From Patescibacteria group bacterium (GTDB lineage: Bacteria; Patescibacteriota; Kazan-3B-28), in the NCBI GenBank assembly GCA_041649135.1, contig JBAZNQ010000001.1:291037-355036 (forward strand): a stretch of 64,000 nt of DNA, written 5' to 3'. The notes beneath the pieces are model-generated. The model had not been told where the DNA came from. It ran no database searches and saw nothing but the letters and a program-made list of their open reading frames with translations. Within the stretch, counting starts at the first letter, position 1, and each line of letters opens with the position of its first letter. Positions 13,540-56,040 of the stretch are shown in pieces. A program made the position numbers and the translations under genes.

Positions 13540-13650
13540 CCATTCATTTTCTTCGTCATCCTCAACTTGATTGGGGATCCAGACAGAAACAAAAACATTT
13601 CTTGTTCTTTTCTAGATTCCCGCCTTCGCGGGAATGACGGGGAAAGGGCT
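13540..13650. repeat. GTCATCC...GGGAATGAC palindromic repeat copy
   Basis: ttcgtcatcctcaacttgattggggatccagacagaaacaaaaacatttcttgttcttttctagattcccgccttcgcgggaatgacg. Confidence 0.55.
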
Positions 13651-13929
13651 CAACTCAAAACCCACCACGCCCCCTGCGTGTTGGTTTATTTGTTTTAATA
13701 GATTGTAAATTTTCACATCGTCGCTGTCGCTGACCATATTTAGTCAACTAGCAATTTGTCGATGTGCAATGAGCCGCTTGGCTCGCTATACCTAGACTAT
13801 AGTAGTCAAAGTATTTTGTCAAGCAAAAAGTGGCTCTGGAAGTACAAAAAGCCGCTTTTGCCAACCATTTCTGAAGTATACCTGATATCCCCTTGACAAC
13901 TACCAATAAAAATGTCCTAATCTGGGAAA

Positions 13930-14574
13930 CTATGCCCGAACATCCTGCGCCTTTTCTGCCTCCAGCATCGCCATATCTGTAGCTGACAGCGGTGTTTTAA
14001 ACAGCTCATTCACCAACCACAGCCCACTCTCCCGAATTTTCTGTTTTGGGGACCACTGACCAAACCAGTTTTGTGACGGTCGACACTCCGAACAAGCCGC
14101 AATCGTACTAATCATTCTAGATTCCAGCCTCAATCGCCTATCTTTATTCTCCACCTCAATTACCACAAAGCTAAAATTGGTCTGGATGTACTGCGACACA
14201 CATTTTTCAGTACCTTGCAGCTTTCCCTTGTCCACTCCATCTCCGTGTCTCCCCCTAGCTGCCGCTGATGTTAAATCTAACTCCCACTTCTCCAAAAATT
14301 CATCGTCAGCTTGATTTAAAAATGCCCGCCCGATGTTCTTTCGGAAGATACTTCTATCTTTGTTCTCCGTCAGAAAATGCTGACGCAACCGCGACCGTAA
14401 TTGATCTTTGCCCGTATGTGTACCAATCCTGACAATCCGCCGACCACCATGAGCCTTCTCCCCCTTCTCAAACAAAAGATAAATCCCATTCGCTGGAATT
14501 CTTGTTTCGTCAAACGGAAATGTAAACACCGCCAGACTATTTGCCCACTTGTGCAGGTTCTCGCACTGATTCAT
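13930..14574 (-). CDS. GIY-YIG / T5orf172-like domain protein with an uncharacterised C-terminal domain
   Basis: NGIYLLFEKGE...RIVRIGTHTG..LRSRLRQH resembles the GIY-(10-15 aa)-(Y/R)IG core. Overlaps the upstream gene by 38 nt. Confidence 0.5.
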   Translation of the reverse strand: MNQCENLHKWANSLAVFTFPFDETRIPANGIYLLFEKGEKAHGGRRIVRIGTHTGKDQLRSRLRQHFLTENKDRSIFRKNIGRAFLNQADDEFLEKWELDLTSAAARGRHGDGVDKGKLQGTEKCVSQYIQTNFSFVVIEVENKDRRLRLESRMISTIAACSECRPSQNWFGQWSPKQKIRESGLWLVNELFKTPLSATDMAMLEAEKAQDVRA

Positions 14575-14995
14575 TATTTAGGTTCACCTTTAACCAATGT
14601 AACTGTTTCCCAATTCCCAAATTCTTCAACGGCACTATGCTGTATCGTAAAGATGAGACCAAGTGCCTACGATACTTTTCCCCCGCCAACACCACTACTT
14701 CCAAATTATCTATATCCGCTTTCGCCCGTAAATGTTTTAACACCCGTTCCGCCCACACTCGGACTTGTTGATCCGACATTGTCTTCAGAGTCAGATTGTA
14801 CGGCACAAGCCTCCGATCCAATTCAACTAGCCCATATTTCGCTGACAAAATAAATATCGCATCAGGCCGTAACGAATGCGCATACGCCAAATTTGCTCGA
14901 AACAACGGGCTAATATAAAAATCCTCGGCCGGAGCCGCCCGATTCGCCTTCTTACTCGCACAGGCAATTAAGACGATCTTCTTCATCACCAACAA
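14537..14995 (-). CDS. small alpha/beta hypothetical protein (DUF6884-like from memory, unverified)
   Basis: MKKIVLIACASKK...ILSAKYGLVELD...PYNLTL. Sits between the NUDIX gene and the GIY-YIG-like gene, with near-zero spacing to the former and overlap with the latter. Confidence 0.5.
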   Translation of the reverse strand: MLVMKKIVLIACASKKANRAAPAEDFYISPLFRANLAYAHSLRPDAIFILSAKYGLVELDRRLVPYNLTLKTMSDQQVRVWAERVLKHLRAKADIDNLEVVVLAGEKYRRHLVSSLRYSIVPLKNLGIGKQLHWLKVNLNNESVREPAQVGK

Positions 14996-14997
14996 CC

Positions 14998-15477
14998 CTA
15001 ATTGTCGTAAAAATATCTTCCATTACGATATGCCTCGATGTAGCTGGGAATAGTCTCAAACACCGGCCTCGGCAAATTGTCTAAATCATACCAATCCCAC
15101 CCATCGTTTTTCTCTGGTTCCATCACCTTCGGCTCACCACTCTTCCAATCCGCCACCAATCCAATATCAACATAATGCTTGGGAGCATAGGCCTTTAGAT
15201 TCATTAACCGCAAAAACCTAATATTCGTAATCTCAATATCAGCTTCTTCTCTAGTTTCTCGCTTAGCACAGTCTTCAAACGATTCCATGTACTCCATGTG
15301 ACCGCCCGGCCAAGCATAAGTGTTCTCGCCGTGAGCCCCTTTGCGTTTATGCATCAACACTTTGCCGTCTTTCATAACCATCACCCCAATACCAACTTTT
15401 ATGCCAAGCCCTTGCTCTGGTTCATTTTGCGCCACCATCACCCCAATACCTGCCTCTGATTTTGATTCGTCATTCAT
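14998..15477 (-). CDS. NUDIX hydrolase
   Basis: Nudix box GGHMEYMESFEDCAKRETREEADI (GX5EX7REUXEEXGU). Confidence 0.8.
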   Translation of the reverse strand: MNDESKSEAGIGVMVAQNEPEQGLGIKVGIGVMVMKDGKVLMHKRKGAHGENTYAWPGGHMEYMESFEDCAKRETREEADIEITNIRFLRLMNLKAYAPKHYVDIGLVADWKSGEPKVMEPEKNDGWDWYDLDNLPRPVFETIPSYIEAYRNGRYFYDN

Positions 15478-15592: not shown

Positions 15593-18412
15593 CTATGCGC
15601 CATGACATTTTTTATATTTCTTACCAGAACCACACGGACACGGATCATTCCGCCCAACTTTGTCTTTATGCTCCTGTGGATCGCGTACCGCCCGTAGGTC
15701 CCCCGTAGCTTCACGCGAAGGGGGATCCCCCACCTCCGTTTGGTGATTGGTTATTGATGATTGGCTATTAGTCGCTGGTGATTGGTCATTGGTTATTGGT
15801 GCTTGCGATTCAGCGATTTCCTTCTCTTCGTCGCTGAAATCGCCCTTCGGTTCCGCACCACCTTGTAAATCTAATTTTGCGTCCGGCGTAGCTTTCTTGT
15901 CCGACGTAGCCTTGGTGAAGTTGGAAGCGAAGGAGGACTCACCACCCCGCAACGCCAACTTCTTTTTCTCTTCCAGCTCGTCTTTACCCTGTTGGTCATT
16001 GGTTATTGGAGATTGGATATTATCGTCAGCTTTGCTGACGATTTTAACTTTAAAAATCAATCTCGCCACATCAAACGCTATCGCACTTTGCAATCTCTGA
16101 AACATCGCATACGCCTGCTGTTTGTATTCCACTAATGGATCTCTCTGCCCATACCCCTGCAAACCAATTGCTTCACGCATTTTCATCATCGCGTCAATGT
16201 GCTCCATCCATAAAATATCCATCACTCGCAATAAAACTGCCCGTTCCGCCTGACGAAAATTCCCAATTTCTTCTCCATCCACCATCTGGCTGCCGGCTTC
16301 TTTTTCTTTAGTCTCATATTGTTTCTTTGCTTCCTCTACCAAAATCTCACCCCAGCGTTCTGCACCCGTTTCTTCCAGTTGTTTCTTCAAATCACTCCCG
16401 ACTGGGAAAATATTATTCACATTTTCGATTACCGTCTTAAGATCAGTCGAATAATTATTTGCCAGCAGTCTCAATTCATCAAAAATATAACCCTGTACCA
16501 TCGTTCTGATATCATCCCCTTCCCCCGATTCATGATTCATAATTCGTGATTCTTGATTCAAAATCGCCTGCCTCTGTCTGTACGTCGTTGCTCGATGACG
16601 ATTCATTACATCGTCGTATTCCACGACGCGTTTGCGAATATCAAAGTTATGGCCCTCCACTCGTTTCTGGGCTGACTCAATGCTCGAAGTGATCCACCGA
16701 TGTTCCAACGGCTGATCCTCCGGCATTTTCAGCGTCTTCATCATCGACTTCAGCCGTTCACTACCGAACAACCGCATCAAATCATCTTCCAATGATACAA
16801 AAAATTGCGTGCTCCCCGGATCACCTTGCCGACCAGCTCGACCACGCAGCTGGTTATCAATTCGACGAGACTCGTGCCGCTCGGTACCGATAATATGTAA
16901 ACCACCCAATTCTTTTACGCCTTCACCTAATTTAATGTCCGTTCCTCGACCAGCCATGTTGGTCGCGATCGTTACCATTCCCTTTTGTCCGGCATCTTTG
17001 ACTATCTCGGCTTCTTTTTCGTGATGCTTCGCATTCAAAACACTATGCGGCACTCCTTCCACTTTTAGCATTTCTGACAGCAATTCTGATTTTTCGATTG
17101 CGATCGTACCAACCAAAACCGGCTGACCAGTTTCATATCGGCGTTGAATTTCCTTCACCACCGCCTGAAACTTCATTCGTTCATTGACATAGATCAAATC
17201 ATTCAAATCTTGCCGCACCATTGGCCGATTAGTTGGAACTACTACCACTTCCAAACCATAAATTTTCCAAAACTCTTCTTCTTCAGTCTTGGCCGTACCA
17301 GTCATCCCACCTAACTTGTCGAACAAACGAAAATAGTTCTGGAAAGTGATCGTCGCTAACGTTTTGCTTTCCCGTTTAACTTCAACATTCTCCTTAGCTT
17401 CGATCGCTTGATGTAATCCTTCGGAATATCGACGCCCCTGCATCAACCGACCGGTAAATTCATCGACAATTAACACCTCTCCGTCTTTCACTACATAATC
17501 AACGTCTCTTTTATACATTGCCTGCGCCCGCAGAGCTTGTTCAATGTGATGCGCTAGTAAAATATTACCTGATTCATAAATATCACCGATCCCCAATAGC
17601 TTTTCTATTTTCTCAATTCCCGCTTCCGTCAAAATCGCCGACTTTTGTTTTTCATCAGTCGTGTAATCAACCTCTTTTGTTAGCTGTGGCACGATCGCCG
17701 CAAATTGTTTGTAATGCTGTGTCGATTCCTCATCCGGCGCCGAAATGATCAAAGGCGTTCTGGCCTCATCCACTAAAATCGAGTCAACTTCATCAACGAT
17801 CGCATAATACAATCCCCGTTGAACTTGTTCCTCACGGCTTCCCGCCATATTGTCGCGCAGATAATCAAACCCAAATTCATTATTCGTCCCGTAAGTAATA
17901 TCCGCCGCGTATGCCTGCTTGCGTTCTTCCGGTGAAGTATCGTGAGTAATTGCTCCAACTGTTAATCCCAAAAATTCATACACTTGACCCATCCATTCCG
18001 AGTCACGTTTTGCCAGATAATCGTTTACCGTTACGATGTGCACTCCCTTACCCGCTAATGCGTTCAAATATGCTGGTAGAGTTGAAACCAAAGTTTTACC
18101 CTCACCTGTTCTCATTTCCGAAATCTTGCCTTGATGTAACACAATGCCACCCATTAACTGCACATCAAAATGCCGCTCACCCAGCGTCCTCTTGGCGGCT
18201 TCGCGCACAACCGCAAATGCCTCCGGTAAAATATCATCCAAAGTCTGACCCTTGGCCAATAACTCCTTGAAATATTCCGTCTTTGCCCTTAATTCACTAT
18301 CCGCTAGTGGCTGTACACTAGCCTCTAGCCCATTGATCCGATCAACGATCGGCTGGAGCTTTTTAATTGCCTGTTTGTTTGGATCCCCCAAAATCCTCTC
18401 GAGAAACTTCAT
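15593..18412 (-). CDS. secA: preprotein translocase ATPase SecA
   Basis: A 939-aa protein with DEAD-like motor motifs and a C-terminal zinc finger [15 protein letters not shown]. The C-terminal extension contains PITNDQ-type repeats. Confidence 0.9.
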
Positions 18413-37901: not shown

Positions 37902-37976
37902 TGGTGGACCCGGGTGGGATCGAACCACCGACCTTTCCGATGTGAACGGAACGCTCTACCACTGAGCCACGAGTCC
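37902..37976 (-). tRNA. tRNA-Val (anticodon CAC)
   Basis: Reverse complement GGACTCGTGGCTCAGTGGTAGAGCGTTCCGTTCACATCGGAAAGGTCGGTGGTTCGATCCCACCCGGGTCCACCA. Cloverleaf with D-loop AGTGGTAGAGC, anticodon loop TTCACAT, T-loop GGTTCGATCC and an encoded CCA. Confidence 0.85.
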
Positions 37977-40279: not shown

Positions 40280-40660
40280 CAAAAATTCTAAATTCTAATC
40301 TCTAAATCCTAAACAAATCCCAAATTCCTCTGAAAATTCTAAACTCGAAACTCTAAATTCTAAACAAATTCTAAATTCTAATGCTTCAAACGTTTCCTGT
40401 GTCATTCCCACCCTCTTCTTTGTCATTCCCGCGTAGGCGGGAATCCAGCCAAGAACAAAAACATTTTTTCTTTTTTCTGTCCCTGGCCGCGACCGCAGGC
40501 AGGCTGGATGCGGTCGCCACGGCGACCTTACCAGAATGACGGTCTTTTGTTTCGGTAATTGTTATTTCGAGCTTGTTTAGTATTTCTGATTTCGGATTTC
40601 GTGTTTTTATTTCTGGATACTAGATGCTAGATACTAGATACTGAATTGTGTTTCGGATTT
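40280..40660. repeat. composite intergenic repeat, near-identical to 1000-1260 over more than 110 bp
   Basis: ctgaaaattctaaactcgaaactctaaattctaaacaaattctaaattctaatgcttcaaacgtttcctgtgtcattcccaccctcttctttgtcattcccgcgtaggcgggaatccagccaagaacaaaaacattttttcttttttctgtc. Confidence 0.65.
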
Positions 40661-49059: not shown

Positions 49060-49380
49060 TACAATTCTAAACCCCAATTTGTCTTTCTGCTCCTCCCTCC
49101 GTCATTCCCGCGAAGGCGGGAATCCATTTCTTCCTGTCATTCTGAACCCTTCAATTCTTCAGGACAGGCTCCGCGAAGAATCTAGTTCCGGTTTACCGGA
49201 ACGACTATCGTCTAGATCCTTCATTTCATTCAGGATGACAGCACGACTGTTTATTTTGTTTATTGATAATTGACCATTGCTTCTGTTTATTGTGATTTTT
49301 TTGTTGATTGGTTATTGGATATTGATTATTACCTCTGTTTATTGGTTATTACTTCTGGTCATTGATTATTGGATATTGGA
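49060..49380. repeat. composite intergenic repeat (GTCATTC palindromes plus a (TTGGATA)n-like array) between nrdR and nrdJ
   Basis: gtcattcccgcgaaggcgggaatcc; gtcattctgaaccc...ttcaggatgac; ttggttattggatattggatatta. Confidence 0.55.
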
Positions 49381-51720: not shown

Positions 51721-51966
51721 CATGCCAAGCGCGGCGAGAGTGCTTGAAAAGAAACATAAAAATGGATTCCCGCCTACGCGGGAATGACAAAAAAGAATAA
51801 GAAAAAATAAACAATGCCCCGCCATTACTGGCGGGGCATCGCTTGGTTTATTTATTTTAGAGGTGGAGATGGGAGCAGGTCAGCTTGGTTTCAATTTATT
51901 GAAACTCGGGCTTCCCGACTGACCGTTGAGGGAAGAACACACCTCCGTTCTTCCCTCAAGAGCTAG

Positions 51967-55624: not shown

Positions 55625-56040
55625 ATTCTAAATTCGAAACTCTAAATCCCAAACAAATTATAAATTACAATGTTCCAAACTTCTTCTTTCGTCATTCTGG
55701 GAATTCTGCCGTATGGCAGAAGACGCCAGAATCTTATTCGATTAGTCATTCTTTTCCCCTTCGTCATTCTGGGGGGGATGAGATGACTCCAGCATCTTAT
55801 CAAATAATCCTTCCCGCTCCTTCCTTTGTCATTCCCGCGTAGGCGGGAATCCATTTTTGTCCAGTCATTCTGGCTTGACCAGAATCTTATTAATAATTAT
55901 TTCCTACGATTCTGGATGCGGTTGCCACGGCGACCTTACCAGAATGACGGTCTTTTTGTTTTTGTCTTTACCCCTAGATACTAGATACTGAATACTAGAT
56001 ACTGACTTATGTTTCGGATTTCGGGTTTCGGATTTGATGC
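55625..56040. repeat. composite intergenic repeat (several GTCATTC...GAATGAC palindromes, a TTCTGCC-N4-GGCAGAA hairpin and a (TTTCGGA)n arm)
   Basis: Shares the ggatgcggt(c/t)gccacggcgaccttaccagaatgacggtc sub-module with 40500-40550. Confidence 0.6.

Follow-up and report, generated by a model that had tools for sequence, protein, structure and literature searches.

A conserved DUF6884 and GIY_YIG_3 gene pair beside a probable bystander Nudix gene in a Patescibacteria genome

We analyzed a 64,000-nucleotide stretch of DNA (the window) from a metagenome-assembled genome of Patescibacteria, also called the candidate phyla radiation (CPR), and within it a group of three closely packed minus-strand genes encoding a Nudix hydrolase (gene 1), a DUF6884 protein (gene 2), and a GIY_YIG_3 protein (gene 3). 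A sequence-only reading of this DNA had taken the three for a tightly coupled accessory unit, possibly related to defense. This description suits genes 2 and 3, which very probably constitute a two-gene functional unit with the Nudix gene as a bystander; it does not extend to the latter, since the trio is not conserved. In what follows, A denotes a DUF6884 protein (gene 2 type), B denotes a GIY_YIG_3 protein (gene 3 type), and the pair is A plus B. The three open reading frames (ORFs) lie where that reading had placed them, and all have strong homologues (1320, 336, and 4199 matches for genes 1, 2, and 3, respectively). The features of the locus are as follows.

14998-15477, minus strand: gene 1, Nudix hydrolase, 159 amino acids (Pfam NUDIX, 9.9e-17)
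14537-14986, minus strand: gene 2, DUF6884 / PDC-M57A, 149 amino acids from the ATG; the ORF reaches a TTG at 14995 (152 amino acids)
13930-14574, minus strand: gene 3, GIY_YIG_3 (PF26468) / PDC-M57B, 214 amino acids (PADLOC, 5.7e-93)
14948-14962, minus strand: CxxxK motif of gene 2, C9-A-S-K-K13; C9 and K13 in 71/71 unfused homologues
14831-14848, minus strand: LSAxxG motif of gene 2, L47-S-A-K-Y-G52; S48 and A49 in 71/71 homologues
14422-14487, minus strand: GIY...RIG hairpin of gene 3, G30-I-Y32...R49-I-G51; G30, Y32, R49, and G51 in 70/70 homologues
14584-14590, minus strand: Shine-Dalgarno-like AAGGTGA, 9 nucleotides 5' of the gene 3 ATG and within the 3' end of gene 2, as read from the sequence
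13666-13680, minus strand: terminator-like hairpin about 250 nucleotides 3' of gene 3 (consensus scan, weak evidence)

Genes 2 and 3 overlap by 38 nucleotides (14537-14574), as had been claimed, because protein A in the window's clade carries a C-terminal extension of about 10 amino acids. The 2-nucleotide gap described between genes 1 and 2 holds for a start at the TTG at 14995; from the ATG at 14986, which gives the 149-amino-acid length listed by NCBI for the identical protein (P0241), the gap is 11 nucleotides and still tight. A consensus scan detected no terminator-like site among the three genes on the coding strand, and the Nudix gene is probably cotranscribed with the pair, which itself forms a compact cassette of 1.05 kb.

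The gene pair and its Nudix neighbor

A pattern scan of 185,579 species genomes, one for each species, found a relative of gene 3 in at least 405 of them (about 0.2%). The locus counts given here refer to the best 80 loci, at about 60% identity, among these genomes; the loci come from CPR, DPANN, methanogenic archaea (Methanosarcina), Bacteroidota, Chloroflexota, Planctomycetota, Proteobacteria, Cyanobacteria, and others. A was found directly upstream of B on the same strand in 70 of the 80 loci, with overlaps, mostly of 1, 4, or 8 nucleotides, of the type associated with translational coupling; the two were fused into a single protein in 7 loci, and only 2 loci showed no DUF6884. No other gene family recurred around the pair. 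Across both domains of life, mean pairwise identity over 71 A/B pairs was 62% for B and 54% for A, and the identities of A and B were positively correlated (r = 0.50). In an alignment of 25 B sequences, 57 of 214 residues were invariant.

When 1.84 billion representative proteins were searched with a profile (cut-off, E <= 0.001), at least 1753 clusters at 50% identity were found to match the pair. A DUF6884-GIY_YIG_3-DUF7662 fusion of about 460 amino acids was common among the representatives listed, and in other fusions the two domains were preceded by a PIF1-like helicase, by Pif1_2B and a topoisomerase (Top1) zinc ribbon, or by TPR. The DUF6884-GIY_YIG_3 unit was present in all nine of the scanned architectures with a Pfam match, the tenth (P0365) having a GIY_YIG_3 region and no Pfam match. 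DUF7662, a domain of about 70 amino acids (within residues ~383-472 in P0382, P0386, P0375, and P0390), ends many of the fused proteins; its motif LPxSA(R/H)xxRxWW(A/S)N is conserved, and the domain is absent from the window's module.

Both proteins matched PADLOC models over nearly their full length, gene 2 matching PDC-M57A (3.1e-52; 174.6 bits; profile positions 1-136 of 138) and gene 3, adjoining on the same strand, matching PDC-M57B (5.7e-93; 308.3 bits; positions 3-207 of 211). Given these full-length matches and the identical order, strand, and adjacency of the genes, the window's pair is another instance of the already catalogued PADLOC candidate PDC-M57. The earlier statement that no such system had been described thus stands for the trio and fails for the pair. 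The PDC families go back to genes found inside BREX, DISARM, or Type I restriction-modification operons, and most of them are untested (bioRxiv 10.1101/2024.01.29.577857). PDC-M57 is a bioinformatic candidate, and the window's copy lies outside any defense system, amid housekeeping and surface-protein genes.

Gene 1 does encode a Nudix hydrolase, as had been proposed (Pfam NUDIX, 61.6 bits versus a cut-off of 21.1), and its REx2EE core is intact. Its Nudix box, GHMEYMESFEDCAKRETREEADI, had been called perfect; it departs from the consensus twice, with T at the first hydrophobic position and D in place of the consensus G, both at noncatalytic positions. Matches to NCBIfam equivalogs were all far below cut-off. 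A match to PDC-S07 (41 bits) was rejected as generic, since 9 of 10 divergent Nudix paralogues score 30 to 56 bits with that model.

The neighborhood check that the sequence-only reading had called for did not reveal a conserved trio: any Nudix gene lay within 6 kb of the pair in only 5 of the 80 loci, and just one locus had a homologue of the window's own Nudix gene near the pair. A three-gene module could draw on the tight packing of the genes with no terminator between them, on the Nudix genes that also flank the pair in two relatives (L081 and L090), and on the 144 immediate neighbors of the pair, among which NUDIX was nominally the commonest Pfam family with 3 members; a Nudix gene abuts the pair in L011, L030, and L073. 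Nudix genes make up about 1% of the genes of small genomes by our estimate, however, which places 3 of 144 near chance, and the 10 fusion architectures scanned all lacked Nudix. The related loci of the window's clade, L081, L090, and L082, were arranged as follows.

L081 (SecA 81% identical to the window's): secA, Nudix, the pair, PKD gene
L090 (SecA 76% identical): secA, CYTH, Nudix, x, Nudix, the pair, Nudix
L082 (SecA 71% identical): serS, secA, tRNA_edit, five tandem Nudix genes, PKD gene, without the pair

Arrays of Nudix genes follow secA at L082:4485-6928 and L090:4652-7325, with up to five paralogues that are mutually 25 to 45% identical; the members have been differentially lost between genomes, and the window retains one. 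The window's Nudix protein shares 85% identity with the second protein of the L082 array, whereas that of L081 shares 78% with the first (L082a) and only 29% with the window's. That different paralogues adjoin the pair in close relatives indicates that the pair sits inside a lineage-specific array of which other members survive in each genome, and L082 keeps its five-gene array without the pair. Close homologues of the window's Nudix (about 68 to 86% identical for the best matches) are common in CPR genomes, and its orthologues (68 to 80% identical) in three other CPR genomes examined stand in unrelated contexts without the pair. We conclude that gene 1 is a housekeeping-type paralogue of the array downstream of secA and is linked to the pair by position only.

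Across the genomes of the clade, the identities of A and B follow the same rank order as that of SecA, and the GC content and third-position GC content (GC3) of genes 2 and 3 are close to those of neighboring host genes, GC3 being only marginally higher. The SecA-like order together with the host-like composition indicates that the pair is resident and vertically inherited in the window's clade; recent acquisition, considered on grounds of composition, was rejected because GC and GC3 are near the range of host genes. The pair is absent from the most distant clade member sampled (L082).

Surroundings of the locus

The GC-rich lipoprotein gene downstream had been regarded as acquired. Genes with PKD domains hold the same position in L081, L082, and L088, the last being, with L089, the locus of one of two independent, near-identical assemblies (JGI 3300037067 and ENA ERZ27247358); the PKD lipoprotein gene is thus syntenic among relatives and not evidently acquired. 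The spacer of about 600 bp 3' of gene 3, said to contain repeats, holds a single copy of a dispersed palindrome and no local repeat array.

This 20-nucleotide palindrome, ATTCCCGCG(A/T)AGGCGGGAAT, is mostly preceded by GTC and has partly similar flanks. It occurs at seven sites in the window (13616-13635, 23353-23372, 23412-23431, 40425-40444, 49104-49123, 51766-51785, and 55831-55850), against 0.01 expected by chance, with one copy in the 596-bp spacer and an inverted pair at 23353/23412. The relatives L081, L082, and L090 lack it, and L088 has only a variant form. The element resembles a repetitive extragenic palindrome (REP) or a miniature inverted-repeat transposable element (MITE).

Three further candidates were rejected for the region 3' of gene 3. 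A conserved third small gene was dismissed since the small ORFs of the window, L081, and L088 are mutually unrelated, one small ORF called there being the translated palindromic repeat. No degraded Nudix gene was found in the 596-bp spacer by tblastn with 13 Nudix queries, and a search for RNA genes with Rfam (gathering thresholds) and ARAGORN gave only a tRNA-Val at 37902-37976.

On a larger scale, the large ORFs listed for the first 30 kb run almost exclusively on the minus strand, and each 1-kb bin of the 64-kb window shows a strongly negative GC skew (cumulative, -15), consistent with a single replichore in which genes are extremely co-oriented. The C-terminal region of SecA (15593-16100) contains a long low-complexity insert ahead of the conserved zinc-binding tail, with repeated units such as ITNDQ, ATNSQ, and ITNHQ; the opposite strand of this insert reads as LVIGDW-type repeats, suggesting an in-frame expansion of simple repeats.

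The two proteins

The suggestion that gene 2 resembles DUF6884 proved correct (Pfam PF21818; 3.2e-42; 144.3 bits versus a cut-off of 30; profile positions 1-134 of 135), and the signature described for it, MKKIVLIACASKK and ILSAKYGLV, is present. Over the 71 unfused A homologues, C9, K13, S26, S48, A49, Y63, and Y105 were invariant (71/71). An AlphaFold2 model of gene 2 (mean predicted local distance difference test [pLDDT], 90.2) had Escherichia coli YaaA (5caj_A) as its top Foldseek match in PDB (probability, 1.00; E = 3.9e-3; query-normalized TM-score, 0.51), and in an hhalign comparison with E. coli YaaA (E = 0.001) the segment LSAKYG..PY..W..LAGEKY of gene 2 was aligned to LSGLYG..PY..W..LASDEY. 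The predicted fold of gene 2 is thus the YaaA-like alpha/beta "cantaloupe." This agrees with the description of DUF6884 in the literature as a YaaA-like cantaloupe fold, in which CxxxK, named a putative active-site element, and LSAxxG line a putative pocket, and an AlphaFold3 model of the DUF6884 protein YfjM flips a nucleotide into this pocket (PMC11701544). Bacillus subtilis YfjM was enriched on DNA probes with abasic sites and ribonucleotides (PMC10220248). YaaA itself binds DNA and has been linked to protection against oxidative DNA damage (PMC11701544), and RefSeq annotates it likewise; DpdC, an enzyme of the DUF328/YaaA family, converts preQ0 into 7-amido-7-deazaguanine (ADG) within DNA in vitro (PMC10164549).

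Gene 2 shares with YaaA and DpdC (DUF328, PF03883) the predicted fold and the motifs LS(A/G)xYG, PY, W, and LA(G/S)(E/D)xY. It differs from them in length, its 149 amino acids being about half of the 258 of YaaA, in its DUF6884-specific CxxxK motif, and in its obligate pairing with a GIY-YIG protein, and its matches to hidden Markov models (HMMs) of YaaA and DpdC are weak (19 bits for YaaA, where the Pfam cut-off is 29.6). A Dpd 7-deazaguanine system would comprise DpdA, DpdB, and full-length DpdC; gene 2 covers 66 of the 312 positions of the DpdC profile (2.9e-5), and no dpdA, dpdB, or other dpd genes were found near it. Profile HMMs of the A and B families had no matches among PDB sequences, and a literature search combining the cantaloupe fold with YaaA and GIY-YIG yielded no pertinent paper.

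A patch of gene 2 (14654-14878; codons ~37-111) is divergent between the window and the two near-identical assemblies, being only 68% identical over 225 nucleotides (72 mismatches) to L088:1-1100 and to L089. Outside this patch, gene 3 has 1 mismatch in 645 nucleotides, the first 108 nucleotides of gene 2 are almost identical, and the PKD gene and a 718-amino-acid gene are 98.5% and 99.9% identical at the amino acid level. The changes affect 21 codons synonymously and 25 nonsynonymously, show no adenine bias, and leave the invariant motif residues intact. A diversity-generating retroelement was therefore rejected as their source: the lack of adenine bias and the dominance of third codon positions point to a recombined divergent allele. 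Such a divergent patch in the putative sensor gene of near-identical strains might reflect an exchange of specificity.

Gene 3 contains the GIY...RIG core that had been noted, with NGIY at residues 29 to 32 and RIG at residues 49 to 51, and its proposed likeness to GIY-YIG proteins is borne out by the precomputed Pfam family PF26468, named GIY_YIG_3, which is assigned to the identical protein and to about 4200 homologues of gene 3. The older Pfam models gave no significant match to gene 3 itself (best, GIY_YIG_2 at E = 0.057), and 25 of its relatives gave weak matches, all below cut-offs, to GIY-YIG (16), GIY_YIG_2 (15), and DUF123 (10). The suggested likeness to T5orf172 was not recovered, as neither gene 3 nor the 25 relatives matched T5orf172 or MUG113 at E <= 5. 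When the gene 3 alignment was compared by hhalign with the first 110 residues of E. coli UvrC, the result was a 29-column alignment, which was discarded as spurious.

In the AlphaFold2 model of gene 3 (pLDDT, 89.9), the predicted order of elements is beta-beta-alpha-alpha-(helical insert)-beta-alpha, with GIY on a strand at residues 30 to 41, RIG on a strand at residues 44 to 52, and a helical insert of about 45 residues (89 to 133). Over 70 to 71 B homologues, Y32, R49, R62, and H66 were invariant in 70/70 and E151, on the helix after strand 3 of the model, in 71/71. Putatively catalytic positions are unchanged throughout in both A and B. The position of GIY on strand 1 and the modeled beta-beta-alpha-alpha...beta-alpha order are those of the GIY-YIG nucleases (the N-terminal domain of UvrC/Cho, I-TevI, Slx1, and Eco29kI), from which gene 3 differs by the helical insert, by a C-terminal extension with a CxxC motif, and by RIG as its second motif, where Tyr is replaced by Arg in 70/70 homologues while the strand and Gly are kept. 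The RxxxHF motif of gene 3 (R62...H66-F67) may correspond to R27...H31-F32 of I-TevI. The (near) invariance of C4, H8, C161, and C164 suggests a zinc site, so that, judging from conservation, the CxxC motif together with C4 and H8 may bind zinc. The GIY-YIG domains of UvrC, I-TevI, and Slx1 generally take their targeting from a partner and have no specificity of their own.

Possible functions of the pair

The two proteins are likely to form a sensor-plus-nuclease complex acting on DNA. In the mechanism that we propose, A and B would associate 1:1 on DNA, where the YaaA/DpdC-like DUF6884 subunit would bind the duplex and flip a base into a conserved pocket whose residues would include Cys9 and Lys13 (CxxxK) and Ser48-Ala49 (LSAxxG). 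The flipped base would be read as an aberrant or modified nucleotide, and this recognition would license the small GIY-YIG domain, which, like those of UvrC, I-TevI, and Slx1, would not select its target by itself, to nick or cut nearby. The chemistry of DpdC, the probe enrichment of YfjM, and the targeting of GIY-YIG domains by partners support such a reader with a licensed nuclease, and the DNA-acting domains added in several of the fusions support action of the pair on DNA. The role of the pair would be a self-contained, Type IV-like restriction of foreign DNA with modified or aberrant bases, which would be the reason why PADLOC lists it as a phage defense candidate. As the best overall explanation, we incline toward modification- or aberration-dependent restriction of foreign DNA by a DUF6884 reader and a GIY-YIG nuclease.

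The likeness to GmrSD and other Type IV enzymes is one of functional analogy only: these, too, are self-contained, work without a cognate methyltransferase, and combine a reader of a DNA feature with a nuclease. GmrSD has no sequence or fold relation to the pair, and a modification dependence of the pair is purely hypothetical. A GmrSD gene directly precedes the pair in one Methanosarcina locus (L016), and in the locus of Methanosarcina sp. 2.H.T.1A.6 (L025) the pair is flanked by the hsdS and hsdR genes of a Type I restriction-modification operon, a context that counts toward defense because PDC families are defined by such embedding. The latter operon (L025:68-10445) carries two cargo units between hsdM and hsdR, the first being a Schlafen/AlbA_2-HTH protein with an unannotated 367-amino-acid protein and the second being the DUF6884-GIY_YIG_3 pair. 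The patchy distribution across both domains, the presence variation at a single locus (with L082 lacking the pair), and the modular fusions lean to defense, which is somewhat favored by them. Restriction or defense rather than repair is nevertheless an assignment that we make tentatively, at slightly under an even chance.

Several points weigh against a defensive reader and nuclease. Complex formation, base flipping, catalysis, and target are all inferred, and the literature search found no publication mentioning PDC-M57, DUF7662, PF26468, or GIY_YIG_3. The assignment of gene 3 to the GIY-YIG fold relies on the name of its Pfam family and on subthreshold sequence matches; Foldseek searches of its model against PDB and BFVD gave nothing significant (PDB, E <= 0.001), and the likeness to the GIY-YIG domain of UvrC (1yd6_B), third in the PDB ranking, was not significant (E = 3.2; target-normalized TM-score, 0.55). 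With the second canonical Tyr replaced by an invariant Arg, nuclease activity of gene 3 is not assured. In addition, most of the 144 immediate neighbors are housekeeping rather than defense genes, and a single archaeal lineage accounts for all the Type I and GmrSD contexts. In the window's clade, where it is inherited vertically at one locus and has a host-like GC content, the pair behaves as a resident gene. Its conservation (62% mean identity for B), unusually high for defense genes, would also fit a repair enzyme.

DNA repair is the alternative that survives best, although we consider it unlikely. Here, the DUF6884 protein would find a lesion, such as an abasic site, an embedded ribonucleotide, or an oxidized base, and the GIY-YIG protein would nick beside it, as an accessory excision nuclease like UvrC/Cho or UVDE, which would be useful in the reduced genomes of CPR and DPANN. 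The enrichment of YfjM on abasic and ribonucleotide probes (PMC10220248) and the DNA binding of YaaA with its link to oxidative damage (PMC11701544) speak for repair, as do the vertical inheritance in the window's clade and the extreme conservation of both proteins, as expected for a universal substrate. The mostly housekeeping neighbors, a few of them of repair type (RadC, UvrD, a DNA alkylation repair enzyme, and PD-(D/E)XK), point the same way. However, the distribution is very patchy, the pattern scan having found the pair in about 0.2% of species genomes, and varies among relatives; the pair is embedded in a Type I operon or beside GmrSD in Methanosarcina; the fusions to a Pif1-type helicase, TPR, and DUF7662 are modular variation typical of defense; and YfjM stands alone, with no GIY_YIG_3 partner shown.

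Considerably less probable is a toxin-antitoxin or addiction cassette spread horizontally, in which a GIY-YIG toxin would be held by a DUF6884 antitoxin, or in which DUF6884 would be the protective modifier of a restriction-modification-like pair. The compact size of the cassette, with its upstream gene overlapping the downstream one, the patchy transfer across domains, and the Phd/YefM antitoxins that adjoin the pair in two loci agree with this, and the Dpd system, itself restriction-modification-like, has as its modification arm DpdC, to which gene 2 is distantly related (PMC10164549). Yet frequent A-B fusion is atypical of type II toxin-antitoxin pairs and argues against a classical one, and DUF6884 has invariant enzyme-like residues rather than the architecture of a DNA-binding or degradable antitoxin and has no recognizable cofactor domain for modification. 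Neither dpdA/tgt or preQ0 synthesis genes nor integrases or transposases recurred near the pair in the 80 loci. Plasmids and phages, moreover, essentially lack the pair; searches gave 0 phage records, 2 distant matches on haloarchaeal plasmids, and 3 matches in 2.9 million viral contigs, and an origin from either was rejected. Finally, a Nudix-DUF6884-GIY-YIG module of the nucleotide-signal or NAD/ADP-ribose type proposed by the sequence-only reading, with Nudix degrading or making a signal and DUF6884 as the adaptor, is highly improbable, since the trio is not a unit (no Nudix gene within 6 kb in 75 of the 80 loci) and the idea of a defense or toxin module of this kind falls with it.

The pair is not a Dpd system, not T5orf172, and not a three-gene Nudix system. 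The window offers one more instance of a catalogued candidate and not a discovery, to which our analysis adds that the Nudix association is a local accident: a plausible-looking three-gene system is reduced to its real core, a small and strongly conserved pair moving between Bacteria and Archaea. Elucidating how the pair works would supply functions for the Pfam families DUF6884 and GIY_YIG_3 and put to the test one of the 145 untested candidates in PADLOC, and it could show what the YaaA/DpdC fold does on DNA generally. It is conceivable, though less than probable, that the pair represents an uncharacterized class of two-subunit or fused endonucleases in which the Cys/Lys pocket of a YaaA fold reads or covalently engages an unusual base and licenses a RIG-motif nuclease; if true, this would be a new cofactor-independent principle of restriction or repair, passed between Bacteria and Archaea and retained even by minimal CPR and DPANN genomes. 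Few defense or repair genes are recognized in these organisms, and the pair would add to either inventory.

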